Part shown: in pieces, positions 24,936-45,258 of the stretch
Layout of the letters: each line of letters begins with the position of its first letter
How positions within the stretch are numbered: position 1 is the first letter of the stretch
NCBI GenBank assembly: GCA_039208735.1
Contig: JBCCQY010000050.1
Coordinates: forward strand, 1 to 56,349
Direction of reading: 5' to 3'
DNA length: 56,349 nt
Origin: Myxococcota bacterium
Lineage (GTDB): Bacteria > Myxococcota_A > UBA796 > GCA-2862545
Notes under the pieces: model-generated
The model's database searches: none
Told to the model about the DNA's origin: nothing
Seen by the model: only the letters and a program-made list of their open reading frames with translations
Program-made: the position numbers and the translations under genes

Positions 24936-25136
24936 CAACCCGACTCGCTCGCAGGTCGGTAAACCGGTGATATGGTGAGGCACGATCTCGGATCGTGGCT
25001 TGCGTCTCGCCCGAAAGCCTTCTGGCCCCCTCCCATCCAGCGGCGGCCGCCCCGGGGCAATCCGGTCCCCCGGGCATCGCGTGAAGGGCTCGCAGGTCCC
25101 CCCCTCCAACACCGCATTCCCCCGGAGCTGTCCAAA

Positions 25137-25628
25137 ATGGAATTCAAGATGCACTGCCCGAAATGTCTGGGATATGACTACAGCATCGAACGGGACAACC
25201 GGACATTTGGCGCGGTCGCACAAGCCTTTGAGTTGATTTTCCACTGTCGCTGCGGCAAGCAGATGTTCGGCGAGCAGCTCATTAAGGAGTACGACCGGCA
25301 AGAGAAAGAGTTCAAGTCCGGTCACTCTGATGGGGAGTACGCTCCCCCAAGCACGAGCCTTACTCCGAACGGCGAGATGCCCCGCGCGCGACGCGATGTG
25401 AGTGTCGCAGAAGCCACCACGATGGCTTTGGAAGAACTGCACAAGACAGAGCCTGGCGCCGAGCGATTAATCGTTGGCGACCAGCTCTGCACTTGGCCAG
25501 GCTGCGATAAGCCTGCGCGTCCGAATTCGAAGTACTGCTCGCGGGCTTGCTCCAATAAAAATGCGCGTGCACGGCACAAGGCGCGCCAGAAGAAGGTGAA
25601 GAAGCCCGCCAAGCACGCCGCGGCATAG
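25137..25628 (+). CDS. Small basic protein with two zinc-binding modules
   Basis: N-terminal CPKC...HCRC; C-terminal CTWPGC...YCSRAC followed by a Lys/Arg-rich tail; GGAG RBS before ATG 25137. Confidence 0.65.
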   Translation: MEFKMHCPKCLGYDYSIERDNRTFGAVAQAFELIFHCRCGKQMFGEQLIKEYDRQEKEFKSGHSDGEYAPPSTSLTPNGEMPRARRDVSVAEATTMALEELHKTEPGAERLIVGDQLCTWPGCDKPARPNSKYCSRACSNKNARARHKARQKKVKKPAKHAAA

Positions 25629-29083: not shown

Positions 29084-29659
29084 ATGATCGTTTTGTTGGC
29101 CATTGCCTGTTCAAGTGCCCCGAATCCGGCTGAAGGTCCGGTTCGCTCCCAGCCCGCTCCCCCCGTTGCAAGCTTCGAAAAGCAAACGGCGGAGCCGCCA
29201 AAGATGGTGTTTACCGCCATCACAGACATGTTCGACCGCGGCCGCATCGGTCCGCCCAAGGCAGCAGCCACGGTCCGACCGGGGATGCCGCGCGCCGAGG
29301 CCATCGAAGCGCTCAAAACGGCCGACGCCACAAAAGGGTCGTTGCTGCAGCGGAAGGATGACACCGGCCGCGACATCGACTCCGTCCTGCACCTGACTGA
29401 GCCACCGATTCGCTTCTACGTCTTGAGCAAGGCTGACACGGTCGTCCAAATGCAGGTCGCCCTTCCCTTCGAGGCCGCAACCCACGCACTAGGCGATCTC
29501 TGGGGCGACCCCGCCCCGGGCGAGGCCACCCCCGAAGGGAAAGTCACCTTTGTCTGGTCCGGCGACGTCTGGAAAGCCCGCCTCCAGCCGCTGCCAGACC
29601 CCGACGAAGGCCCGCTTGCCCTTCAAGGGCGCGGCATTCTGGAACTGACGCCGCTTTAG
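29084..29659 (+). CDS. Hypothetical lipoprotein
   Basis: AAGGAG RBS; short lipobox MIVLLAIAC. Confidence 0.55.
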   Translation: MIVLLAIACSSAPNPAEGPVRSQPAPPVASFEKQTAEPPKMVFTAITDMFDRGRIGPPKAAATVRPGMPRAEAIEALKTADATKGSLLQRKDDTGRDIDSVLHLTEPPIRFYVLSKADTVVQMQVALPFEAATHALGDLWGDPAPGEATPEGKVTFVWSGDVWKARLQPLPDPDEGPLALQGRGILELTPL

Positions 29660-30522
29660 TCGGATGCCACCGCATCGAGCAGCCCAGCCGTCGACATCCG
29701 CTCGGCCTCGTCCCGCTCCTTCCAACGCAACAACAAGCCCGTCGTGCGCATGGGGAGCAACGGGTCTTGGAGTGCCAGGTCGATGGGATCGAGCATGCGC
29801 ACCTGCTGGTCCCGCTCATCGACCTCTCGTTTGACGGGGGCGAGCCAGCTTCGGGACGCAGGCGCATAGACAAGTTCGATGGGAGCTTCATCCTCGATGA
29901 CCACAAGCGCCGTGCGACCAATCCGGTGGGCTTTCGCCGGCTCGGGGGTCAGGGCGCACGGGGCTCCCCGATAGCACCGGGCATGAAAGAAGCCGTCGCG
30001 GTCCACCGCCCAACGACCCAATGGCCCGTGAACCCAACCGCCGGGCAACGGTCGCCCTGACCGCCCGACGACCACCCCGGTGACTTCAATGGGTTCCGGC
30101 TCCATGACCTGGCAGCGACCCGGCTCATCCGGAAATGCCCCTGACCATCGAACCACGACCCGTGGGGGTGATTCACTGGGATCGGAGGCCGCGTGCAATG
30201 CCAGGCTGCCCTCGGGTTCCGCTACGGTGGCGACCAACGTGCCGCCTTGTACGGTGGCGTGCGACCACTCCCGGGTAGCCTCTTCGTCGGCGGGCCAGGC
30301 GTCATCGACCGGACAACGAATCCATCCTTCACCCGCGTGCCGGGCCAGGATGCGAACTGCCCGATCGAGGTCCGTCGAGGGACTCGCGATCGCGGTGCGC
30401 GGGAGGGATGCGGTCGTTGGAGGCGTCGCCTCAGGGGGTTGTCGTTGGTGGATGAGCCAAGGCAGTCCTGCGAGACCTCCCATCAGCAATCCGGCTGTCC
30501 CACCAACAACGAAGTCACGCAT
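29656..30522 (-). CDS. Hypothetical membrane-anchored protein with a carboxypeptidase-regulatory-like domain
   Basis: N-terminal TM; 'VTGVVVGRSGRPLPGGWV...DRDGFF'; GGAGG RBS before ATG 30522. Confidence 0.5.
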   Translation of the reverse strand: MRDFVVGGTAGLLMGGLAGLPWLIHQRQPPEATPPTTASLPRTAIASPSTDLDRAVRILARHAGEGWIRCPVDDAWPADEEATREWSHATVQGGTLVATVAEPEGSLALHAASDPSESPPRVVVRWSGAFPDEPGRCQVMEPEPIEVTGVVVGRSGRPLPGGWVHGPLGRWAVDRDGFFHARCYRGAPCALTPEPAKAHRIGRTALVVIEDEAPIELVYAPASRSWLAPVKREVDERDQQVRMLDPIDLALQDPLLPMRTTGLLLRWKERDEAERMSTAGLLDAVASD

Positions 30523-30608
30523 CCAGGCTTGCCTCCGACTCCCTCCATCGGACGGCGCAGGCTCCCTTCGTTGCCACGACTTGTCGGGACGCCCATGATG
30601 CTTCTGTG

Positions 30609-30800
30609 CTAGCTGACCTGGCGGTACACCCAATAAACGCCGCTACCAAGCATCAGCAGCGGCAGGAACGTCAGCAGAACCGTCGCATCGAAGAAGGCCT
30701 GGCGATTTTCTTCGGTGGCCGAAAAGCACACCGAGCAAGCGAGCGCCGTGCCAGGAAACGACAGCGCAGTAACAGCGACGGACAGTGCGGCAGTGCGCAT
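30609..30800 (-). CDS. Small membrane protein with an ACxxC motif, last gene of the oxidase operon
   Basis: MRTAALSVAVTALSFPGTALACSVCFSATEENRQAF followed by a TM; starts 14 nt after the subunit III stop. Confidence 0.65.
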   Translation of the reverse strand: MRTAALSVAVTALSFPGTALACSVCFSATEENRQAFFDATVLLTFLPLLMLGSGVYWVYRQVS

Positions 30801-30814
30801 GGCGATGCTCCGAT

Positions 30815-31408
30815 TCAGCGCAAATAGACGAGGTAGTAGAGGAAGGGCCAGAGCAAAACCACGAAATACCAGAAGAGCCGTCCCGCCCAGAAGGCCTCCG
30901 CCGTGAGCTTGTTCGTCTGCAGACGCAGCCACAGGTTGAACAACACCAACGTGCCGCCGATGACATGCAAGCCGTGGGCGCCGACAATCAGGTAAAAGAA
31001 CGAGGCGTGCGCGGATTTCTGCAGGGTCAGCCCATCTGAAAGCAACTGCACCCATTCCACACCCTGAAACACAACGAAAAACACCCCAAGCAGCATGCCG
31101 ATGAGCATCGGCAACTTAGCCTTGGAGGGGTCTTCGGTGAACCGGCGCCCTGCGTAGTAGACGATGGCGCCCGAAAGCAACAACGCCACCGTATTGAATG
31201 CCGTCTCTTCCACGGGGAGGAGCGGCTGGTCGGGCGGAGGCCAGACCTCGACCGCGGACCGTGCAACGAGGAAGGCCGCAATGAACCCTCCGAACAGCAT
31301 GATCTCGGTCATGATGAAAATCAAGGTTCCCAGCACCGCACTCGGCACCCGGCGCTCGACAGGCTGGGGCGGGGGATGGACGAGTCGGAGATCGGTCTCG
31401 CTGGCCAT
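30815..31408 (-). CDS. Heme-copper oxidase subunit III family protein (second copy)
   Basis: LGTLIFIMTEIMLFGG, NTVALLLS, FQGVEW, HGLHV, FWYFVVLLWP. Confidence 0.85.
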   Translation of the reverse strand: MASETDLRLVHPPPQPVERRVPSAVLGTLIFIMTEIMLFGGFIAAFLVARSAVEVWPPPDQPLLPVEETAFNTVALLLSGAIVYYAGRRFTEDPSKAKLPMLIGMLLGVFFVVFQGVEWVQLLSDGLTLQKSAHASFFYLIVGAHGLHVIGGTLVLFNLWLRLQTNKLTAEAFWAGRLFWYFVVLLWPFLYYLVYLR

Positions 31409-31425
31409 CGGGGCCTCCGTGCGGA

Positions 31426-31935
31426 CTAGTGGTCTCCCGACTTCGTATCTTTGTCGTGGTCGTCATGGCCGTGGTCATCGCCATGATTGTCACCATGGCC
31501 GCCGTGATGGTCACCACCGGCGGCCTGCTCTTCCTGCGTCTTGGCGATGTACGCCTTCGCCGCCAGGTTTTCCCAGTTCTTCCCTTCATGGTTGCCCACA
31601 TCCGGAGCCACACCGGCGAAGAACAAAACCATGAAGACGACCGAGGTGACCAAGAAGTAGTGAACGATCGGCTTCTCGACATCGAGGTGCATGAAGTGCT
31701 TCATGACCAACCACGCCTTCACCACTGCGATTCCAAACGCCGTGATGAGGGTGATGACAGAGAGTTCCAGCGCTTCACCAACCCAGGGACCGACGAATGA
31801 AATGCCAGCCAACACCACGAGCGCCACGAAGATGGTCGTGTAGTGCGAATCGGGGTGCAGGTGCTTTTCGTCATGCGCGTGGTCTTCGTGCGCAGATGCA
31901 CCAGGTTCCATGGCGGTTGTCGATTGGTCAGACAT
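31426..31935 (-). CDS. Cytochrome c oxidase subunit IV family protein with His-rich termini
   Basis: Three TMs; AVVKAWLVMKHFMHL motif. Confidence 0.8.
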   Translation of the reverse strand: MSDQSTTAMEPGASAHEDHAHDEKHLHPDSHYTTIFVALVVLAGISFVGPWVGEALELSVITLITAFGIAVVKAWLVMKHFMHLDVEKPIVHYFLVTSVVFMVLFFAGVAPDVGNHEGKNWENLAAKAYIAKTQEEQAAGGDHHGGHGDNHGDDHGHDDHDKDTKSGDH

Positions 31936-31950
31936 AGCCTAGCTCCTGCG

Positions 31951-32535
31951 CTACTTGGCGATGTAGAGGAGGGGGAACAAGAAGATCCACACGATGTCGA
32001 CAAAGTGCCAGTACAGGCCCGCATTCTCGACACGGTGAAGTTCTTCATTGCGGCGTGCCGTTCCGGCCACCCACAACATCACGATGCCCCCACCGATGAC
32101 GTGAGACGCATGGATACCCGCTGCCGTGTAGTAGAACGCCCAGAACGGATTCTTCCAGGGCACGTAGCCATGGCTGATCTCGGTCGTCCATTCGTAGCCC
32201 TTGATGCACAAGAACGCCGCGGCACAAAGAATGGTGAGGTACAGCCAGTTCGCGGCCGTACTGCCTTCGCCCCGCTCCGCCGCATTATGCGCCCGAACCG
32301 CGAAGTACGATGAGGTTAGCAGCACCATCGTGTTGATGAAGCCGATGTACTCGTTGGTGTCGTTCGCAAAGCCCGGGCCACCCCATTCGGGATGGTTGAC
32401 GCGGTGCATGATGTAGGCAGCGAGGATGCCTCCGAAGATGACGACTTCGGAGGCAAGCAGCCACCAGACCGCGAGCTTCGACGTCAGGATGCCCGTCGAA
32501 GACCGGGTTGTGGCAATGGGTCTAAAAGCGGCCAT
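31951..32535 (-). CDS. Cytochrome c oxidase subunit III
   Basis: KLAVWWLLASE, NTMVLLTSS, KGYEW, HASHV, GLYWHFVDIVWIFLFPLLY. Confidence 0.9.
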   Translation of the reverse strand: MAAFRPIATTRSSTGILTSKLAVWWLLASEVVIFGGILAAYIMHRVNHPEWGGPGFANDTNEYIGFINTMVLLTSSYFAVRAHNAAERGEGSTAANWLYLTILCAAAFLCIKGYEWTTEISHGYVPWKNPFWAFYYTAAGIHASHVIGGGIVMLWVAGTARRNEELHRVENAGLYWHFVDIVWIFLFPLLYIAK

Positions 32536-32553
32536 GGCGGTCCTCGATTCCCG

Positions 32554-34269
32554 TCAGGTGGGCTGGTTCTGCGGCCAGTAATCGTCTTCACGACCCCGCA
32601 CCGAGTACTCGTAAGGGCCTCGGTACACCCGGGGCATGTCATTCGGCGGCCAGTTGCCGTGGCCCGGGGGCGACGACGTGGTCCACTCGAGCGTATTGGC
32701 CTTCCACGGATTGGGGCCGGCCTTTTCGCCACGGAACATGCTGTAGAACAGGTTGAAGAGGAAGACGAACTGGAACGCGATGAGGATGACGAGCGAGACC
32801 GTTGCGATGATGCGAAGCACCTGAAGGTCCGGCGTCGACAGCTCGGGGTAGATGTTGAAGTTGTAGATCCGGCGGTGCTGACCGGCGGCACCCAGTACGA
32901 AGAGCGGGATGAAGATGGTCTGGAGCGGGATGATGGTGCCCCAGAAGTGAATCTTGCCGAGGTTTTCGTCCATCATACGGCCGAACATCTTCGGGAACCA
33001 GAAGGTCAACGCGGCGAACGCCCCGATGAACGCAATCGGGAAGAACGTGTAGTGGAAGTGCGCGATGACGAAGTAGGTGTCGTGGAAGTAGATGTCCATG
33101 CCGCTGGCACCAAGGTAGATGCCCGTCACACCACCGATGAGGAACGTCGCGATGAACGACAGCGCCCAGAGCATGGGGGTCGTGAATCGAATCGATCCGC
33201 CGTACAGCGTGGCGATGTAGAGGAAGAGCATCTCGGCGATGGGAATCGAGATCAGCACCGTCGTGATCGTGAACACGTTGGCCATGCGGGGGTCAACGCC
33301 CGCGATGAACTGGTGGTGCGCCCACACGAAGAACGACAGCACGCCCGTGGCAATCGCCGTGTAGAGGATGGTCTGGTAGCCAAAGAGCTTCTTGCGGGCG
33401 AAGACCGTGATGATCTCGGCCACAATCCCCATTGCAGGCAGGAGCACGACGTACACTTCAGGGTGTCCGAAGAACCAGAAGAGGTGCTGCCACAGGATGG
33501 GGTCACCACCGCCCGCGGGATTGAAGAACGCGGTGCCCAACTGCTGGTCCATGAACAGCATGATGGCGCCCGCGATGAGCGGCCCAACGGAGACCATGAA
33601 GAGAATGGAGGCGATGCAGATCATCCACACCACCATGGGCACATCCTTCGCGCCCATGCCGGGGGCCCGCGAATTCATCGCCGTGGTGATGAAGTTGATG
33701 CCGCCCACTAAGAATGCGACAAACTCTACCGCCACTGCGACCAGCCATAAGGTCGAGCCGAGCGGTGTGAGGTTGTAGTCTGCGTTTGCAGAAAGCGGCG
33801 GGTACGACGTCCAAGCGCCGCCGAAGCCACCGCCCGGCACCACCCAGCTCGCGAACAGGATGAGCACGCTGATGAAAAACAGCTGATACGACAGGCGGTT
33901 CAGCTTCGGGAAGACCATGTCATCGGCGCCGATCATGAGCGGAATCAGGAAGTTCCCGAAGGCCGCAATCAGCACCGGCATGGCGACCCAGAAGATCATC
34001 ACCGTGCCGTGGTTCGTGATCAGCATGTTGTATTCGGTAGGGCCGACGACGCCGTAGCCCGGAACACTGATGCCCGGGAAGGCGAGCTGCATGCGGAAGG
34101 CGTAGACGAAGAACCCGCCGAACAGCGCCATGAACATCCCCGTAAAGAGGTACTGCATGCCGATGTACTTGTGATCGAGCGGGAAGATGTATTTTTCGAG
34201 GAAAGTGGGCTCGTGGTGCTCGTGCCCGTGCTCCTCGGGGTGGTCGATCGTGGGCTGGCTGGCCATCAC
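32554..34269 (-). CDS. Heme-copper oxidase subunit I (A1-like GHPEVY, divergent proton channels)
   Basis: DHKxIG, NHGTVM, WTSYPPL, WFFGHPEVY, WAHHQF, HDTYFVIAHFHY and HRR; all six His ligands present. Confidence 0.95.
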   Translation of the reverse strand: MMASQPTIDHPEEHGHEHHEPTFLEKYIFPLDHKYIGMQYLFTGMFMALFGGFFVYAFRMQLAFPGISVPGYGVVGPTEYNMLITNHGTVMIFWVAMPVLIAAFGNFLIPLMIGADDMVFPKLNRLSYQLFFISVLILFASWVVPGGGFGGAWTSYPPLSANADYNLTPLGSTLWLVAVAVEFVAFLVGGINFITTAMNSRAPGMGAKDVPMVVWMICIASILFMVSVGPLIAGAIMLFMDQQLGTAFFNPAGGGDPILWQHLFWFFGHPEVYVVLLPAMGIVAEIITVFARKKLFGYQTILYTAIATGVLSFFVWAHHQFIAGVDPRMANVFTITTVLISIPIAEMLFLYIATLYGGSIRFTTPMLWALSFIATFLIGGVTGIYLGASGMDIYFHDTYFVIAHFHYTFFPIAFIGAFAALTFWFPKMFGRMMDENLGKIHFWGTIIPLQTIFIPLFVLGAAGQHRRIYNFNIYPELSTPDLQVLRIIATVSLVILIAFQFVFLFNLFYSMFRGEKAGPNPWKANTLEWTTSSPPGHGNWPPNDMPRVYRGPYEYSVRGREDDYWPQNQPT

Positions 34270-34290
34270 ATCCTCGGAAAAGTTGGGGAA

Positions 34291-34968
34291 CTAGCGGGAA
34301 GCCACCGTTTCAGCCTGGAGCATCCAGGCCTCATATTCCTGCGGCGTATGCACGATGAGTCGCGCCGGCATCAGGCCGTGGCCGATGCCGCACATCTCGG
34401 TACACTGGATATCGTACGTGCCCGTTTTGGTCGCTTCGAACCAACCGGTGATCCGGCGGCCAGGAATCGCGTCCTGTTTGAGGCGGAAAACGGGAATCGA
34501 GAAGCTGTGCAGAACGTCGCGCGACTCGAGCTGGAAGTGGTAAGGCTCGTTGACCACGATGTGTAGTTCGTCACCGACGTCGATGTCGTCTTCGGTGTCG
34601 AGTTCACCGTCCGGACCCTGGTGCTTGAACGTCCACGCCCACTGCTGGGCCGTCACGCGCACCACGTTTGTGGTGTCGGGCAGATTCTGCTTGACCTGCA
34701 TCCATACGTTGACCGCGCCGGCGATGATGATGAGGTCTAAAGCGATGATCGCGGCGTGTGGCCAGTTGATCCAGCGCTTGAGCTCGGGCTCGTTGCCCGT
34801 CACGTAAAGCGCCTTTTCGCCGGGCTGTTCCCGGTACCGCCACAGGAAGTAGAAGAACACGCCCTCAGCCGCGAAGAACCACGGCATGACGATGATCGTC
34901 ACGAGAACAAACAGGAAGTCGATCTCGGAGGCGTAGGTCGAGACAGGCTCGATGAGCATTTCGATCAT
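34291..34968 (-). CDS. Cytochrome c oxidase subunit II (CuA)
   Basis: QQWAW, DVLHSF, QDAIPG, CTEMCGIGHGLM CuA motif; two N-terminal TMs. Confidence 0.93.
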   Translation of the reverse strand: MIEMLIEPVSTYASEIDFLFVLVTIIVMPWFFAAEGVFFYFLWRYREQPGEKALYVTGNEPELKRWINWPHAAIIALDLIIIAGAVNVWMQVKQNLPDTTNVVRVTAQQWAWTFKHQGPDGELDTEDDIDVGDELHIVVNEPYHFQLESRDVLHSFSIPVFRLKQDAIPGRRITGWFEATKTGTYDIQCTEMCGIGHGLMPARLIVHTPQEYEAWMLQAETVASR

Positions 34969-34975
34969 GACGGGC

Positions 34976-35080
34976 TCACAAGATGAAGACGAACACGACG
35001 CCGATGAACAGGGCGGCGCCGAACATCGTCGCGACGAAGGTGTTGTTGGCGATTTCTTCGGGGGTCTCGTCCTTGGCCAT
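34976..35080 (-). CDS. 34-aa single-TM microprotein (absent from the ORF track)
   Basis: GGAGG RBS; MAKDETPEEIANNTFVATMFGAALFIGVVFVFIL*; fills the gap between the diheme cytochrome and subunit II. Confidence 0.7.
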   Translation of the reverse strand: MAKDETPEEIANNTFVATMFGAALFIGVVFVFIL

Positions 35081-35089
35081 CAGCCCCTC

Positions 35090-35800
35090 CTAGTTGCCCG
35101 ACTTCAGGGTCTGGATGTAGGCGGCCAAGTTTTCCATGTCCTGCTCTTCCAGGGCAATGGCGTTTGGCCACATGGTCTGCCCCCACTGATCGTCGGGGTG
35201 ACGACCACGAGCGCCGGACTTGAAATTCTTGAGCTGGGTCACGATGTACCAATCGGGCAGGTGCACCAACTTCGGCGAATGAAGATCGGGATTTCCCATC
35301 CCATTCGCACCATGACACGCCGTACATACGAGGTAGCTGGCCTTGCCGGCCGCAAGTTCCTCGGCCGTGGCCTGGATCGTGGTCACCGTCTTCACGCTCT
35401 GCAGCCCGACGATTTCGCCGACGTCATCTTGGATGCCATCGACGTAGGCCGCGACTTCACGCAACTGCCGGTCGGACGGAAGCGCCCACGCCATCGGACG
35501 CATTCGCTTGCCCGCGATGTCGTCATAGGCGACGCCGCGAATTCCATTGCGGAAGTTGTAGAGCTGTTGGGCCACGTACCAGTACGGAAGACCACCGATG
35601 GACGGGGCCCCAATGTCCGGATTTCCGGCTCCGTTTTCGCCGTGACACTGCAGGCAGTAGTTGACGTAGTGGGCTTCGCCCCGTTCGGCCATATCAGCCG
35701 TCGGCTCGTCTGGATCGGTCTTGGCCGTGGCGTAGTCGCAGCCCACAGCTACCAGAGGCAGCGTGGCCATAGCGATGACCCAGGACTTCAGCGAGTGCAT
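35090..35800 (-). CDS. Diheme cytochrome c4-like lipoprotein
   Basis: Lipobox VAVGC; CLQCH and CTACH; two 'Y...QLxNFxxGxRG' halves with distal Met. Confidence 0.9.
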   Translation of the reverse strand: MHSLKSWVIAMATLPLVAVGCDYATAKTDPDEPTADMAERGEAHYVNYCLQCHGENGAGNPDIGAPSIGGLPYWYVAQQLYNFRNGIRGVAYDDIAGKRMRPMAWALPSDRQLREVAAYVDGIQDDVGEIVGLQSVKTVTTIQATAEELAAGKASYLVCTACHGANGMGNPDLHSPKLVHLPDWYIVTQLKNFKSGARGRHPDDQWGQTMWPNAIALEEQDMENLAAYIQTLKSGN

Positions 35801-35877
35801 GAGACCTCTCTTCGGAGTAGCACCCTAAGAAGGGCCTCTCCGCGCATCAATGCTCCAAAGTGCTGCGCCTCGGCTCC

Positions 35878-36393
35878 TCAGCCGTGCGCCATGGTCACGA
35901 TCATCACTCCCGTCACCGTGACGTACAGCCAAACGCCGAACGTCCCGGGCGCAATCTTGCGGTGATCCTCGATCGCCCCAAAGAACCCTCGTGCCCACGT
36001 GGTGAGCGCAAGGGGCAACACAACGATGGCCAACAAGATGTGGGTGGCAAGGACGAACAAGTAGACTGCTCGAAACTCCCCTTCGTACCGGACGGGGCCT
36101 GCGCTGAACCAATGGTAGGTCACATACGAGACCAAGAACACCGCCGACAACGCGAGGGCAAAGGTCATGAGGGCCTTGTGCAAGGTCACCTGCTTGGCCC
36201 GAATCGCCGCAAACCCGGCGAGCAGGACTACGGTGGTGACACTGTTGATGCCCGCGTTGACCCACGGAAGCGCCGAGACGTCAACCGATCCCGCGACGCC
36301 CTCAGGCCGGGGCCCGAGCAACAAGAACGCCACGACGGCGCACACCACCGCCGAAACGGCGTAAATCAGCCGCTGACGGGTGGTCGGATTCAT
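35878..36393 (-). CDS. DUF420 family membrane protein (oxidase assembly-associated)
   Basis: LPWVNAGIN, HKALM, FLVSYVTYH, THILLA, HRKIA, WLYVTVTG. Confidence 0.85.
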   Translation of the reverse strand: MNPTTRQRLIYAVSAVVCAVVAFLLLGPRPEGVAGSVDVSALPWVNAGINSVTTVVLLAGFAAIRAKQVTLHKALMTFALALSAVFLVSYVTYHWFSAGPVRYEGEFRAVYLFVLATHILLAIVVLPLALTTWARGFFGAIEDHRKIAPGTFGVWLYVTVTGVMIVTMAHG

Positions 36394-36986
36394 CGGATGG
36401 CCGCGACGTCCGCGGGCAAGACAATGCCGTCGTCATTGCCCCAGCTGTGACGCTCGTAGGTTGCCACCGCCGCGACGTCATAGTCCGAGAGGCTTCCCCA
36501 CGGAGCCATCGCGCCGTTGTAGGTGACCCCCTGAACCACAATCTCACCGACCAGTCCGTGCACGATGATGCGCGAATGGTTCTGGGCGTCGCCGTAGTAG
36601 TCTCCCGAGCCGGCAAGCGGAGGGTAGATGCCTTCGAGGCCCTGGCCATCGGCCTGGTGGCAGGTCTGGCAAACGTTGCCATAGACCTCTTCACCTCGGG
36701 CCATCAGCGAATCGTAGTCCTCGAGAAGCTCAACCTCTTCCTTGGGAAGCGTCGCCAGGATGGGGCCCTTGTACAGCTCCACATCCACTTCGATGGGCGG
36801 AGACGCGCAGTAGCGGTAGCCCGTCTTGGCACTGACGAGCCACGACGTGCACTCCCCATCGACGTACTTGTGCGCGTAGCGCGCCTGGATCTCGGGCGCG
36901 TCGTGTTCGTAAGGACGTTGCCCGCAAGCCACCGTGAGGGCGAGCGAGCCGACGAGGGTGAAGGAAGCGAGAGTTCGCACGTTCAC
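36390..36986 (-). CDS. Monoheme cytochrome c lipoprotein
   Basis: Lipobox LTVAC; CQTCHQADGQG, YPPLAGS, YNGAM, RHSWGN; GTGA overlap with the heme O synthase stop. Confidence 0.85.
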   Translation of the reverse strand: MNVRTLASFTLVGSLALTVACGQRPYEHDAPEIQARYAHKYVDGECTSWLVSAKTGYRYCASPPIEVDVELYKGPILATLPKEEVELLEDYDSLMARGEEVYGNVCQTCHQADGQGLEGIYPPLAGSGDYYGDAQNHSRIIVHGLVGEIVVQGVTYNGAMAPWGSLSDYDVAAVATYERHSWGNDDGIVLPADVAAIR

Positions 36987-37909
36987 TCCAGAATCCGCAG
37001 GACCACAAGGTCGAGCAGCATGGCACCAAACAAGAGGGACAGATGGGCAATCGAGTGTCGGAACACCTGTCGGTCCACCGCCGGAAGATCGAGCACGATC
37101 GAACGGGCAACCGAAATCAGGAATCCAACCCCCACGACGACAGCGACGACGCCGTAGACCCAGGAGAGTTGACCGAGCCACACCGGAGCCAGCGTCACCG
37201 GTAGCAACAGCGCCGTGTAGCCGAGAGAGCGCCAGCGCGTAGCCTGGTTGCCAACGACCGACGGCATCATGGGGAAGCCTCCGAGCTCGTACTCACGCTT
37301 CCGGAAAATCGCGATGGCCCAGAAGTGCGGAGGCGTCCACAGAAACACGATCAGGAACAGGATGACCGCACCCACCGAGATGCCATCGCCGACGGCGGCA
37401 GACGCAATCAACGGGGCCGTCGACCCGGCCGCACCGCCAATCACAATGTTCTGGGGGGTCCGTGGCTTGAGCCACGCGGTGTAGACCCCGACGTAGAACG
37501 CGATGGTTCCGAGGCCCACCAGCGCGGCGAGGCTGTTGCCAAACGCGTAGAGAAGCGCGGTTCCGAGCACCGTCAGCACCGCGCCATAGGTCGTGACCAT
37601 TACGGGGGAGAGCGCTGCCGCAGGCAACGGACGCTGCCGGGTACGGGCCATTCGAGCATCCGACTCACGCTCGATCACAGCGTTGAACGCCGAGCACGCC
37701 CCGCCGATGAGCGCCGTGCCCAACAGCACAAAGAACGCTTGCGTGGCCGACGGCCAGGTGGCCTGACCCAGCAACAGCGCGGGCAGCCCCGTAAAGACCA
37801 CCAGGCCAATCACCTTAGGCCGGATGATCTCGAGCCAACGTTGCAAAGGATGAACGTCAACCTCTGAAAGCTCAGCCAAGAGCGTGCGAGGAGCTTCAAC
37901 CTGACTCAC
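36983..37909 (-). CDS. ctaB: Protoheme IX farnesyltransferase (heme O synthase)
   Basis: DARMARTRQRPLP, YTAWLKPRTPQNIVIGG, FLWTPPHFWAIA. Confidence 0.93.
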   Translation of the reverse strand: MSQVEAPRTLLAELSEVDVHPLQRWLEIIRPKVIGLVVFTGLPALLLGQATWPSATQAFFVLLGTALIGGACSAFNAVIERESDARMARTRQRPLPAAALSPVMVTTYGAVLTVLGTALLYAFGNSLAALVGLGTIAFYVGVYTAWLKPRTPQNIVIGGAAGSTAPLIASAAVGDGISVGAVILFLIVFLWTPPHFWAIAIFRKREYELGGFPMMPSVVGNQATRWRSLGYTALLLPVTLAPVWLGQLSWVYGVVAVVVGVGFLISVARSIVLDLPAVDRQVFRHSIAHLSLLFGAMLLDLVVLRILE

Positions 37910-38856
37910 GCGACCTCCGGAGCGGGTGCGCTCGGTAAGGCAGGCGCCGGCGCCGAGGACTCACGAACCACCGCGGGCGAACGCCAAACTTCGTAATGGA
38001 GCCACGCCGTGGCAATCGCGATGAGGTTTGCCCCGAGCGAGTGGAGCAGCGTGACCTCGACGGGCAACAACCACCACACGTTGAGGGCGCCAACCAGTCC
38101 TTGCGCGAGCACCAGCAACAGCAGGATGCGGCTTTGGCGAGCCACCCGAACCGAGCCCTGCCACGTCAGAACGACCTGAATCGTGGCAAGCCCAAGGAGG
38201 GTCCACGCCCCAACCCGGTGCATGACCTGCAGCCCCATCGGCCCGGCAAACGTAGGGAACCAGACGTCGCCATAGCAGGCGGGAAAGCTCGGACAGGTGA
38301 GCCCAGCGTACGACGAAGAGACCAGACCACCAAGACCGATTTGCAAGGGGACCATGACGGCAATCAGCACCGCACCCATGCGCACCGTGGCGGTCACGGG
38401 TGCGCGGTCCGTTACCTCACCGCGCCGCGCTTCATGAATGGAAATCGCGAGCAAGAAGAGGAGCACCGCGAACGCGTTGCCCGCGAGCAGATGCGACGTG
38501 ACTGTCCATTCGGCGAGCAGCTCGAGCACCGTCAGTCCGCCGAGCACGATCTGAACGGCAAGCACCATGGCCGCCACGCCCCACAGGACAGGAATGAAAC
38601 GCGGCAATTCGCGTCGCAGCGCGAAGATGAGCCCGCCTAGGGCGACAAATCCGAGCGAGATTCCCCCGGCAAGCACCCGGTGCCCCCACTCGAGGCCCAC
38701 CCCGAAGTCGATCGTCGGGATGACCTCGCCGAAGCAAAGCGGCCAATCCGGGCACGCGAGGCCCGCGCCGTGCACCCGCACGGAGGCCCCAAAAACCACG
38801 AGACCGACGGTCGCGAGCGTCAGGCCCCATGCAATGCGTTGGATGAGCGTCAACAC
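37906..38856 (-). CDS. ctaA: Heme A synthase (COX15/CtaA)
   Basis: GLACPDWPLC, EWGHR, QIVLGG, second CPSFPAC, HR and H motifs; GTG 38856 with GAGG RBS. Confidence 0.9.
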   Translation of the reverse strand: MLTLIQRIAWGLTLATVGLVVFGASVRVHGAGLACPDWPLCFGEVIPTIDFGVGLEWGHRVLAGGISLGFVALGGLIFALRRELPRFIPVLWGVAAMVLAVQIVLGGLTVLELLAEWTVTSHLLAGNAFAVLLFLLAISIHEARRGEVTDRAPVTATVRMGAVLIAVMVPLQIGLGGLVSSSYAGLTCPSFPACYGDVWFPTFAGPMGLQVMHRVGAWTLLGLATIQVVLTWQGSVRVARQSRILLLLVLAQGLVGALNVWWLLPVEVTLLHSLGANLIAIATAWLHYEVWRSPAVVRESSAPAPALPSAPAPEVA

Positions 38857-39044
38857 GATTTTCCTCTGGCAAGGTGTCGGTGTAGCCGCGCTCTTGCGGC
38901 TCGACATGCGATGCATACGTCGGTAGTCGGCGAACGGCCTATGTTCGCGGGCAATCACCGATGCAGCACGGTGTTGCATGGGTTCTACCTGGGCAGTTCG
39001 CGACTGGCGGGTGACGACGCCCTTACGAGCTGCCTGGAGCCTAC

Positions 39045-39377
39045 ATGAGCACCGAGCCCCCATCTGCGGCCCGCTGGCCCGCCTGGATCGAGGAATGGGT
39101 CCTGCCGTACCTGAACAATGCCTCACTCTGGCCGGTGTGGATCGCCTTGATTGGCCATGTCGTCGTGGGAATTGCGGGATTGATGTTGCTGGGCGTGCGC
39201 CAAAGCCTGCCTGAAGCTTGGTTTGTCCTCGTGCTGCTCGGCCTCGGCTCGGGGTGGCTCGTGGCGAAGGAATGGCAAGTTTCGGCGAAGCTCGGAGGCG
39301 TTGCGCTCACCGTGGTCCTGGGATGGGCCGCGTCGGCGGGACTCGCATGGCTCGCCGAGGCCATCGACTTGTTTTAA
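39045..39377 (+). CDS. Small multi-TM hypothetical protein
   Basis: GGAG RBS; three hydrophobic segments. Confidence 0.55.
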   Translation: MSTEPPSAARWPAWIEEWVLPYLNNASLWPVWIALIGHVVVGIAGLMLLGVRQSLPEAWFVLVLLGLGSGWLVAKEWQVSAKLGGVALTVVLGWAASAGLAWLAEAIDLF

Positions 39378-39383
39378 CGCCGA

Positions 39384-40241
39384 CTAAGGCGCAACCGTGG
39401 GGTAATCGACGGGGTTGGGGGCCGGCCGTTCGCAAATCGCGAGGGCTTGTTGCGGCCCAAAGTCCGTTCCGTCCGACGGCGTGCCGTAGCACCAACCATC
39501 GTCGCGAAGCACCAAGGCAAGCCGTGCATTGACAGCAATCGCATCGAGCAGGGCATCGGCCATCGGGTCAGCCGGGGCGAGGTCGATCAGGAAGTCGACG
39601 GGCTCGGGATTCCCACACAATGGGAGGCCTTCGGGCACCGACCCGTCTGGCCATCGCCAATCTTCGGTGGCCTCGTCAAAGCGCAGGTCGACAAATGCCG
39701 CAAACCCGTGGCCCACGCCCGGCAACGACTCAAGCCAGTCTGGCAAGGACTGCAACTCGGTGCTGTCCTGGAGGGTAGCGAGCCCACGTTGCCCTTCGCG
39801 AGCGGTTTCGGACATCTCGGAGGCCCACCCTTCGCACCGGTCGGCCGCGGTCGTGTAGTGGATGGCTGCGCTCGTGCCGTCGAAGGCCACGAACTCCCGC
39901 TGACCTACAACCAATCCCGCGACATTGCCGGCCGGGTCGAGCGAATCTGGACACGCCCGACTTACCAATCCTGTCACGTTGGGATCATTGTCGTCGCAGT
40001 CCAGATCGTTACCGGCGGCCCCGGGAGGCAGCGCCGTCACGCAAGCAATCTGCCCAAGGGCTCCCTCGCCACCCCAACCGTCGCCGTCCGCGTCGATGAA
40101 GGTCGTGACCTCCACGCAACCGATGGGCAACACCTCGCCTTCGCGAAGGTCCCAGACCGAACCGCAGCTCGCCAACGGTGCCAAGAGGCCGACGACAAGC
40201 ACCGAAGCAAGGTGACCAAGAATTGACGGGCGGTTGCGCAT
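39384..40241 (-). CDS. Lipoprotein with a DxDGDGxG/DCDD putative metal-binding repeat and a C-type-lectin-like domain
   Basis: Lipobox LASC; 'DADGDGWG...DCDDNDP'; 'AADRC...LATL...WRWPDG...AICE'; AGGAG RBS. Confidence 0.55.
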   Translation of the reverse strand: MRNRPSILGHLASVLVVGLLAPLASCGSVWDLREGEVLPIGCVEVTTFIDADGDGWGGEGALGQIACVTALPPGAAGNDLDCDDNDPNVTGLVSRACPDSLDPAGNVAGLVVGQREFVAFDGTSAAIHYTTAADRCEGWASEMSETAREGQRGLATLQDSTELQSLPDWLESLPGVGHGFAAFVDLRFDEATEDWRWPDGSVPEGLPLCGNPEPVDFLIDLAPADPMADALLDAIAVNARLALVLRDDGWCYGTPSDGTDFGPQQALAICERPAPNPVDYPTVAP

Positions 40242-40359
40242 GGCACTCCTGGGTCGACGCACACGTAGCGCGCACGACGCCCGAAGGCCGCACCGCGGAT
40301 CCAACGAGGATAAAACCAACCTTCACGCTGCAGCTGCCTTGCAGCTGCTCGGAGGGCAC

Positions 40360-43575: not shown

Positions 43576-45258
43576 GTGTTCGATGATTACCTGATCCTCG
43601 GAGGAGCCGGCCTCGTCGGCCTGCAGGTCTGCCGACGCATTGTGCTCGAGCTGAAGCCGAAACGGATCGTCGTCGCGGCCTTGACCGAACCGGAAGCGAG
43701 CCGAGCGGTGACCGCACTTCGCGAGGAGTTTGGCGCCCAGGTCCACTTTGCCGCTGCGTACGGCAACCTGTTCGTGCCCACCGACCTCGCCACCGTGCCT
43801 CGTCCCACCATGCTGTCCGAGCGTGCGACCCGAAGACGCTTGCTTCAATGGCTCTATGGCGACTTCGACCAAGCGTTCTCCGAAAACCATCTCGTGAAGC
43901 TCATCGAGCAACACAGGCCCGAAGTCATCGTGGACTGCGTGAATACGGCGACGGGCCTGTCGTACCAAAACGTCTTTGACGGCGCTCACAAAGTGATGGG
44001 CTGGATGGATGACGCCGGGAGCTTCGAAGACGAAGGCGTCGAAGACCTCGAGCATTTCCTGCTGTCGCAGTCGGTGCCCCAGCTCATCCGCCATGTGCGC
44101 TGCGTCCATCGGGCCACCGAGATGTACGGGACTCGAGCCTACTTGAAGGTGGGCACCACCGGCACCGGGGGCATGGGCCTCAACATCCCCTACACCCACT
44201 CCGAAGACAAACCGTCGAAGGTCCTTCTCGCGAAGACCGAGGCTGCGTTCGGGCATACCGGCCTGCTCTTCCTGTTGGCCCGAACCCCCAATGCGCCCAT
44301 CGTGAAAGAAGTGAAGCCTGCTGCGATGATCGGGTACCGCGGCGTACGCACGATCCAGGTTCGCGACAAGCACGGCAACCACCAGGTCGTGGTCCCCCGA
44401 ACCATGGCCTTGACCGACAGCCTCTCGCTACGGGAGGACCCCGCCAATTACGACATCGTCGGCGAGATGGTACTCTCGGTCGTCGATACGGGCGAAAATG
44501 GCCTCTTCACACGCGGCGAATTCGCCGCCATCACGGCGTTGGGGCAGATGGAGTACATCACCCCCGAAGAAATCGCGCGGACCGTGGTCCACGAGATTCG
44601 CGGTGCGAACACTGGACAGGACGTGATTTCGGCCGTCGACTCCTCGGTGCTGAATCCATCCTACAAGGCGGGCTTGGTGCGCGAGGCCGCGCTCCACGAC
44701 CTGGTACTCGCCGAGTCTGAGTCGGGCTTGCCGTCCATCGCCCTTGGCCGCCTCGGGCCCCCTGAACTCTCGAAACTCTTGTTTGAAGCTCAACTGATCA
44801 AAGAACGGTTCGGCGGCCTTCGCGCCACGCTGACCCACGAAGGACGGGACCGGACCCCGCACGAACTGTCCGAGGCGCTTTCAGAACAGCTTGAGCACAG
44901 CAAGGTCCGCACCTTGGCGCCCAGCATCGGCATTCCCATCCTGTCGCCCGACGGCAAGACCTTGTTGCGAGGACCCCGCATCAACGTGCCCGAGGTCAGC
45001 GGACGATCCACGGCTGTAACCCTCGACGACCCGGACCGGACCGATGCATGGGCGAGCAAGGGATGGATCGACCTGCGGCCAAAGAACGCCGCAGTGTGGC
45101 TGGAGCGGTTGCAGCGAATGCTGGCCGCTCGGGTCGAACTTCGCGACGCGGGGTCGGCCGCAGCAAGCATCGAGACTTACCTGCCAGCCGGATTTGAAAT
45201 CGGCGAAGTTGTAGCTTGGATCTTCAATAACGAGATGGGTGGACACAGGATCAAGTGA
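43576..45258 (+). CDS. NAD(P)-binding Rossmann-fold protein of unknown function
   Basis: ILGGAGLVG dinucleotide-binding motif; IVDCVNTATG; 560 aa; no specific family recognised. Confidence 0.6.
   Translation: MFDDYLILGGAGLVGLQVCRRIVLELKPKRIVVAALTEPEASRAVTALREEFGAQVHFAAAYGNLFVPTDLATVPRPTMLSERATRRRLLQWLYGDFDQAFSENHLVKLIEQHRPEVIVDCVNTATGLSYQNVFDGAHKVMGWMDDAGSFEDEGVEDLEHFLLSQSVPQLIRHVRCVHRATEMYGTRAYLKVGTTGTGGMGLNIPYTHSEDKPSKVLLAKTEAAFGHTGLLFLLARTPNAPIVKEVKPAAMIGYRGVRTIQVRDKHGNHQVVVPRTMALTDSLSLREDPANYDIVGEMVLSVVDTGENGLFTRGEFAAITALGQMEYITPEEIARTVVHEIRGANTGQDVISAVDSSVLNPSYKAGLVREAALHDLVLAESESGLPSIALGRLGPPELSKLLFEAQLIKERFGGLRATLTHEGRDRTPHELSEALSEQLEHSKVRTLAPSIGIPILSPDGKTLLRGPRINVPEVSGRSTAVTLDDPDRTDAWASKGWIDLRPKNAAVWLERLQRMLAARVELRDAGSAAASIETYLPAGFEIGEVVAWIFNNEMGGHRIK

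Follow-up and report, generated by a model that had tools for sequence, protein, structure and literature searches.

Why heme-copper oxidases of the A family need two proton channels is an old question, and so is whether the lysine of the K-channel is required to carry protons or to supply a mobile positive charge; work on it has so far relied mostly on inactive mutants. According to the accessible portions of two papers (PMC8361435, PMC8239185), six of the protons travel by the D path, and those for the two reductive steps come through the K path, formed by an entry Glu, Ser, Lys, Thr and Tyr. A1 oxidases without the lysine, including a basal relative of the enzyme described here, are already catalogued from sequence: the available parts of Degli Esposti et al. 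(2021) list Lys-less A1 groups, note repeated channel loss and, classing by sequence only, tabulate an A1 ‘KC channel’ group of Elusimicrobia, Ca. Calescamantes and Methylacidiphilaceae (PMC8239418, Table S1 and Fig. S7). Lys-less oxidases of the A2 type are described for iron oxidizers (Acidithiobacillus rus operon, Thioclava; bioRxiv 2020.03.01.968255, as far as its accessible text goes). In the sections available, subtype a-III is defined by its COX3 doublet (PMC6431628), NO reductases by an absent Tyr cofactor (PMC11214002), and a Ferrigenium preprint mentions a K-less COX of unclear function (10.64898/2026.01.22.701106). Our literature search, with most subscription papers beyond its reach, found no biochemical study of the lineage considered below. 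The supplement of a 2020 preprint by Degli Esposti (Figs S9-S11) reportedly lists further Lys-less COX1 proteins, which may include its clade.

The window analyzed here, the whole stretch of 56,349 nucleotides of contig JBCCQY010000050.1 from a Myxococcota bacterium, carries on its minus strand an operon that begins with genes for heme A synthase (ctaA, 37906..39126; PF02628), heme O synthase (ctaB, 36983..37909; TIGR01473 and NF003349 above cut-off), a monoheme cytochrome c (36390..37181; PF00034) and a DUF420 membrane protein (35878..36393; PF04238); the true starts of ctaA and the monoheme cytochrome gene probably lie 3' of the listed GTG codons. There follow a diheme c4-like cytochrome c with a lipoprotein-like N-terminus (35090..35800; PF00034), a 34-residue ORF with a single transmembrane (TM) helix in its translation (34976..35080), coxII (34291..34968), coxI (32554..34269), a short subunit III homolog (coxIIIa, 31951..32535; PF00510), a caa3-type subunit IV with His-rich ends (coxIV, 31426..31935; PF03626, TIGR02229 above cut-off), a second short subunit III homolog (coxIIIb, 30815..31408; PF00510) that is 30% identical to the first, and a 63-residue protein whose translation shows a signal-like N-terminus, a CxxC motif and one TM helix (30609..30800). 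The gene order c4-II-I-IIIa-IIIb is common to the named carriers of this oxidase, among them Myxococcota, Gemmatimonadota, Bdellovibrionota, Eisenbacteria and Verrucomicrobiota records, and the genes of such Lys-less oxidases are often annotated as cbb3-type in NCBI. The diheme cytochrome gene lies 5' of coxII at 17 of the 18 loci L001-L018, the exception being a contig that begins inside coxI, and its product is a likely electron donor to the oxidase. Searches with the two small ORFs gave no family, the 63-residue protein having no significant Pfam match and Atlas matches to hypothetical clusters only. An ORF resembling the latter occurs at 16 of the 23 clade loci whose flanks are long; a small TM ORF like the 34-residue one is present at all 20 core-clade loci examined and absent from two basal loci, and we regard its product as a candidate additional oxidase subunit. 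A promoter and terminator scan gave a result at chance level.

Subunit I (numbered here from GTG 34269 as residue 1, 571 residues; the database protein starts at ATG 34266 and has 570) matches PF00115 and scores 569 bits against TIGR02891, below the cut-off of 671. Its AF2 model (pLDDT 81.5) superposes on aa3 structures with a TM-score of ~0.85. As an earlier note on this DNA had read by eye, the metal ligands and the entry of the D-channel are intact. All six His ligands (H87, H269, H318, H319, H404 and H406) and the D-channel residues N106, D117, N124 and N192 are kept in 119 of 119 homologs; the D-channel Glu E271 within HPEVY (269-273) and the helix VI Tyr Y273, for which a His-Tyr cross-link is predicted, are invariant as well. 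Aligned by phmmer with the R. sphaeroides (1M56) and P. denitrificans (1AR1) enzymes, subunit I has no gap across helices VI-VIII; the R. sphaeroides CtaD residues S299, T359, K362 and S365 correspond to A284, I344, M347 and L350, and A356, G360 and I361 to S341, A345 and E346. The note’s substitutions of the K-channel Thr and Lys by Ile and Met, its new Glu and its Ser-to-Ala exchange in helix VI are thereby confirmed. No Lys stands at any position of helix VIII, whose residues 340-350 are encoded at 33220..33252. Among the best 119 homologs (73-92% identical), position 347 is Met in 114, Leu in 5 and Lys in none, position 344 is I/L/V, and S341, E346 and Q320 are invariant. With Lys missing from 119 of 119 homologs, the loss is therefore neither chance nor a sequencing error, and the gap-free alignment together with these homologs rules out an alignment artefact. 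The K face of helix VIII is thus hydrophobic in subunit I, and its new polar residues lie on a different face. The change of HHM to HHQ (318-320), which the note had listed, does not point to altered chemistry, because a B-family ba3-type protein (L152) also reads HHQ.

Subunit II is a CuA protein with two TM helices, as indicated by PF00116, conservation and its AF2 model. The CuA ligands H154, C189, E191, C193, H197 and M200 are present in 29 of 29 clade members. The lack of the usual entry Glu, which the note had also proposed, holds in either register: its position is taken by Leu63 or Ile67. The register of TM2 is ambiguous, as hhalign and phmmer keep WxxxP aligned and put a helix insertion after His71, which hhalign places at Asp78, and gap-free anchoring on Trp89 gives the other register. 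TM2, a helix spanning residues 61-94 in the AF2 model, contains two residues that are invariant in the 29 clade members first examined, His71 (34758-34756) and, in the middle of the helix, Asp78 (34737-34735). The note had overlooked these buried residues. Both lie on a segment (34735..34758) that faces subunit I in the predicted complex of the two subunits. This complex scored 0.90, with 0.00 for the best control. Of the solved pairs, 116 of 157 come up to the score mark, of the mismatched ones 2 of 215; for so textbook a pair, the pass may stem from the predictor having memorized it. The runs agree in at least 98% of contacts, with a partner pLDDT of at least 86. On the side of subunit I, the interface lists include S341, A345 and E346, not I344 or M347 (the numbers in the lists were originally one lower than those used here); on the side of subunit II, they include 63, 66-67, 70-71, 74-75, 78 and 81-82. 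Read as an antiparallel ladder, the predicted contacts would place His71 by Glu346 and Asp78 by residues 338-341.

The buried acid in TM2 goes together with the missing lysine. Scoring of 115 paired coxI/coxII loci, with loci without a recognizable coxII left out (L146, a member of the sister group, has no adjacent coxII), revealed an acid 11-12 positions ahead of the conserved Trp at 40 of 44 Lys-less loci versus none of 71 Lys-bearing ones; the latter have the entry Glu in 70 of 71 cases. Most of the acid-bearing loci (37 of 40) belong to a single clade, that of the window enzyme, the other three being Acidobacteria losses elsewhere in the tree (L063/L064, L073). L123 also has a mid-helix Asp, and four Lys-less loci (L028, L114, L124 and L147) are without the subunit II acid. 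In subunit I, none of 158 Lys-bearing proteins has an acid at position 338, 345 or 346; an acid occupies 346 in 56 of the 62 members of the Lys-less clade, and among the 51 other Lys-less proteins 13 have Glu at 338 and 6 an acid at 345. In a test across independent pairs, Ser/Thr341 accompanies Lys loss in ~5.5 of 9 pairs and the reverse almost never occurs (median p 0.03, at a position picked post hoc). The subunit I acids do so in 3 of 9 pairs, which is not significant (median p 0.25), and the control positions listed (336, 342, 349 and 352) gave nothing in this test.

With this in mind, we propose, with a confidence that stops just short of even, that the enzyme is an aa3-type O2 reductase that has kept its D-channel and takes up protons by a substitute route at the interface of subunit I helix VIII and subunit II TM2. 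Electrons would pass from quinol through alternative complex III to the operon’s anchored cytochromes c, and then to CuA, heme a and the heme a3-CuB center. The D117-E271 path would serve both proton pumping and the oxidative steps, and the protons of the reductive half-cycle would enter through the substitute route, where Asp78 of subunit II and Ser341 may form a buried proton donor close to Tyr273, fed from the cytoplasm by the pair of His71 (subunit II) and Glu346 (subunit I) about two turns below. The rerouted proton uptake suggested by the earlier note thus stands as the best reading of the conserved residues, with the predicted route itself only likely.

Alternatively, all protons could pass through the D-channel, with His71, Glu346 and Asp78 providing subunit cohesion or charge tuning and carrying no protons. 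We consider this doubtful, though a serious contender: the D-channel residues and E271 are invariant in all 119 homologs, every canonical K position is hydrophobic, and the subunit II acid is missing from some Lys-less enzymes. Furthermore, the pair assigned to the substitute route is not universal, as the basal members L019, L020 and L099 have neither E346 nor H71, and E346 has also gone from L014, a protein of Puniceicoccaceae bacterium K14, whose record carries no MAG label; this speaks against a side route and for the D-channel. However, a purely structural role does not predict that a buried acid arises repeatedly in enzymes that have lost the Lys and in none that retain it, and the accessible text of PMC8239185 assigns two of the eight protons to the canonical K path and reports that channel-end mutants lose activity. 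The mid-helix position of Asp78 also admits a different direction, in which this residue brings the chemical protons from the outside (P side) and the oxidase conserves less energy. Basal members that have a second Asp nearer the P side, and neither His71 nor Glu346, fit such an uptake; yet in the core clade Asp78 is joined, toward the cytoplasm, by His71 and Glu346, and the enzyme takes the place of an efficient A-family oxidase in many heterotroph-like genomes, so that we judge uptake from outside very improbable.

Protons might also be taken up along helices VI-VII, as in a C-family-like ‘KC-channel’ involving E285, T304, T308 and S312. E/D285 and T308 are present in 119 of 119 homologs and T304 in 117, S312 is invariant, the nearest named relative is classed as having a KC-channel, and Degli Esposti et al., in the parts available, propose such a channel for Lys-less A1 relatives (PMC8239418). 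T304 and T308 are, however, absent from basal members, Lys-bearing a-III enzymes have E285 and S312 too, and the label as given there derives from residue tables. Mapped onto subunit I, the tabulated KC positions are G297, I301, T304 and S312, two of four being polar and S312 occurring in Lys-bearing enzymes as well. E285 (R. sphaeroides H300) was rejected as a novel channel residue, being a common A1 state. Altogether, a KC-type route appears improbable.

The earlier note had further suggested a distinct subfamily, which both searches and trees bear out. Among 1.84 billion cluster representatives, a profile search yielded a single match of 1117 bits, followed by a partial one of 644 and a next full-length one of 576 bits. 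A FastTree phylogeny of 272 proteins, for which close homologs were subsampled to about 1 in 6 and 10 gappy rows dropped, contains a core of 57 (support 1.0; E346 in 56) within a Lys-less clade of 62 (0.999). In an IQ-TREE run on 61 chosen rows (C20 in quick mode, with SH-aLRT as the sole support measure and a single, very long outgroup), the core comprises 9 rows (100) and the Lys-less clade 13 rows including Ca. Calescibacterium (100); the sister group of this clade, also Lys-less, has 16 rows (96). These Lys-less rows fall inside a 33-row group (SH-aLRT 100) of a-III/CoxN, Bacteroidota, Acidobacteria and Gemmatimonadota-type enzymes, most of whose members bear the lysine. Because the clade is nested among Lys-bearing a-III/CoxN-type A1 oxidases, loss of the K-channel lysine is likely a derived state in this lineage, as judged from these trees, and an ancestral state preceding the K-channel is not favored by the quick IQ-TREE run. 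A 267-row tree computed with helix VIII left out shows at least 11 changes of the Lys state.

What such an enzyme does in the cell can be approached from its distribution among genomes, which makes it highly probable that it reduces O2 to water and likely that it is the cell’s main aa3-type cytochrome c oxidase. In the genome from which the window comes, the Lys-less enzyme occurs beside a cbb3 operon, a bd oxidase and an ACIII-like run of genes (G000:C23:36636-44512), so that it is not the sole heme-copper oxidase there; no match to bc1 cytochrome b was found in this genome. Among 41 genomes (this one and 40 relatives, which are not independent), 19 have the Lys-less type, 16 a Lys-bearing A1/A2 type and none both, and 6 are without a classified A-family match; matches of 385-405 bits were counted as cbb3 by score class, with the own copy and four partial ones inspected. 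Of 201 genomes sampled from the phylum, 64 carry a match of at least 70% identity to the Lys-less enzyme, and among the matches listed, a hand count finds no other A-family kind in 52 of these 64 carriers and one in 12. Of the 20 genomes behind the named loci, G045 and G055 also have a Lys-bearing A1 oxidase. In three genomes, G043 (a single 2.86-Mb chromosome), G009 (91% complete) and G030 (94%), no heme-copper oxidase other than this one gave a match and bd was not found; G022, G023 and G024 do carry bd. This distribution fits a housekeeping O2 reductase, and its being the only terminal oxidase found in three near-complete genomes favors O2 reduction over NO or peroxide chemistry.

The latter chemistry, with NO or H2O2 as the main substrate in place of O2, had been raised by the earlier note, and we regard it as very unlikely. 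K-channel mutants of canonical oxidases (K362M) keep reactions with peroxide, which counts in its favor. So does the repeated origin of NO reductases from O2 reductases, as given in the accessible text of PMC11214002. According to the same text, however, NO reductases are without the cross-linked Tyr, whereas the present enzyme and its homologs all have Y273. It likewise retains the three His of CuB and is usually the genome’s only A-family oxidase. In addition, no NirK above cut-off was found in any of five genomes tested and no NirS-length match in another five, which gave one short cytochrome d1 match only, and some carriers have separate cNOR/qNOR-type genes.

A large natural lineage thus seems to breathe with a D-channel and no K-channel lysine, having gained an acid instead of a base. 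More generally, and with distinctly less than even confidence, we put forward that the A family repeatedly swapped the lysine for a side entrance made of a buried carboxylate and Ser/Thr at the helix VIII/TM2 interface, a third uptake design that would sustain full pumping and serve as main oxidase in about one third of the sampled phylum genomes. The lineage supplies named residues for mutation in what is often a genome’s only A-family enzyme, so that the old question of the two channels becomes testable; it also matters for annotation, given the cbb3-type labels, and for the energy yield of environmental Myxococcota and Gemmatimonadota.

Compared with known systems, the enzyme falls outside the NO reductases (cNOR, qNOR, eNOR, sNOR, gNOR, nNOR, bNOR) as the available text of PMC11214002 defines them, since Y273 and the three CuB His are kept. 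B-family ba3 oxidases share the missing lysine and the HHQ after the CuB pair; they are, however, without a D-channel (PMC8239185, accessible text), the K face of their helix VIII is polar whereas that of the window enzyme is hydrophobic, and the window protein scores 40-46 bits to ba3. The Lys-less oxidases of iron oxidizers resemble it in lacking the K-channel Lys and the entry Glu and in keeping the D-channel, but as described in the accessible preprint they are A2 enzymes, most with extra N-terminal helices, that keep T351; they are set apart here by description, outside our trees. The a-III/CoxMNOP oxidases belong to the same superclade and also have two subunit III genes and a subunit IV, in the order III-III-IV versus III-IV-III in the window operon. 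CoxN, at ~44% identity, keeps the Lys and the entry Glu, and the window enzyme has neither; an annotated coxN and a second coxMNOP-like operon both retain the Lys (L112, L115), which rules out CoxN identity.

The A1 ‘KC channel’ oxidases share with it the A1 motif and the absence of Lys and entry Glu, as far as the available tables of PMC8239418 go. Ca. Calescibacterium (L020), which groups with the window protein in the 13-row clade, has the tabulated F/T/F/E pattern with one tabulated position differing, and sequences with the tabulated Elusimicrobia S/I/C pattern, placed by pattern and not by tabulated accessions, form the sister group. The alignment yields no Lys equivalent, and Lys-less A1 kin are already tabulated, without a biochemical explanation in the parts of that source available. 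The A/M/I/L pattern of the window clade occurs in none of the rows tabulated there for A1 Lys-less groups; nor do those parts mention E346, H71 or D78, or count Myxococcota and Gemmatimonadota carriers among the KC group. To the canonical A1 aa3 oxidases (1M56, 1AR1), the enzyme is similar in fold, in the six His, HPEVY and D-channel, in the Mg-site HD and the Arg pair, in its CuA subunit II with two TM helices and in having subunit III, at 38-39% identity. Unlike them, it has S341, E346 and Q320 and, in subunit II, H71 and D78, and its operon differs in encoding two anchored cytochromes c, in having a pair of short subunit III genes and in its two small ORFs. Because the K-channel residues (K362, T359, S299 and S365) and the entry Glu are all missing, we classify the window enzyme as A1-derived and not as a canonical A1 oxidase.

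Two small open reading frames accompany the Lys-less oxidase genes in the operon. The first encodes 34 residues with a single transmembrane segment (window 34976-35080, minus strand), and its counterparts lie between the diheme cytochrome gene and coxII at all 20 core-clade loci that were examined; its product is possibly an extra, clade-specific subunit. The second, the last gene of the operon (30609-30800, minus strand), encodes a 63-residue protein with a signal-like N-terminus, a CxxC motif and a transmembrane segment, and a protein of this type also closes the operon in 16 of the 23 long clade loci. No family was found for the 63-residue protein, which may be a copper or heme assembly factor. 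Four further ORFs of the window are without a Pfam match, encoding 560 (43576-45258, plus), 325 (29656-30633, minus), 311 (39384-40319, minus) and 218 residues (24972-25628, plus), the last with two Cys clusters.

Elsewhere in the window's own genome (G000), a plus-strand run of six genes (C23:36636-44512) is alternative complex III-like by its gene make-up, including a pentaheme c, a large molybdopterin-like subunit, two NrfD-like proteins and a monoheme c. A bc1 cytochrome b was found neither in G000 nor in three further carrier genomes. The same genome bears a cbb3 operon with ccoN, O, P, G-like and I-like genes (C67:about 30000-36572, minus strand), adjoined by genes for a PAS sensor kinase and a response regulator.

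One record titled as a Klebsiella pneumoniae MAG (L002) carries the Lys-less oxidase operon at 76% identity and is probably mislabelled; its copy resembles that of the relative G009. Frameshifts or single in-frame stops interrupt the oxidase copies of L024, L126, G169 and G095, reflecting either assembly error or decay.

At L146/L160 (G049:C210), a Lys-less sister-group subunit I is without coxII immediately upstream; the genes in that place encode two other proteins, one SCO-like and the other small and copper-type. L123 (G031:C3) is a second, separate Lys-less oxidase whose genome also holds a basal member of the clade; in L123, subunit I has Glu at position 345 and subunit II carries an Asp in mid-helix. 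The A-family-like subunit I of L028 (7935-9692) has lost two CuB His ligands (Gln at 269 and 318) together with the Lys, which the relatives around it keep. Five divergent heme-copper proteins of relatives (L130, L140, L128, L129 and L137) are without the helix VI Tyr, and are presumably similar to eNOR and to the putative N2O-reductase family. Finally, in three COX1-3 fusion oxidases (L114, L124 and L147) Gln replaces the K-channel Lys, with Glu at 338 in two of them, yet a published table (PMC8239418) assigns a K-channel to this subtype.
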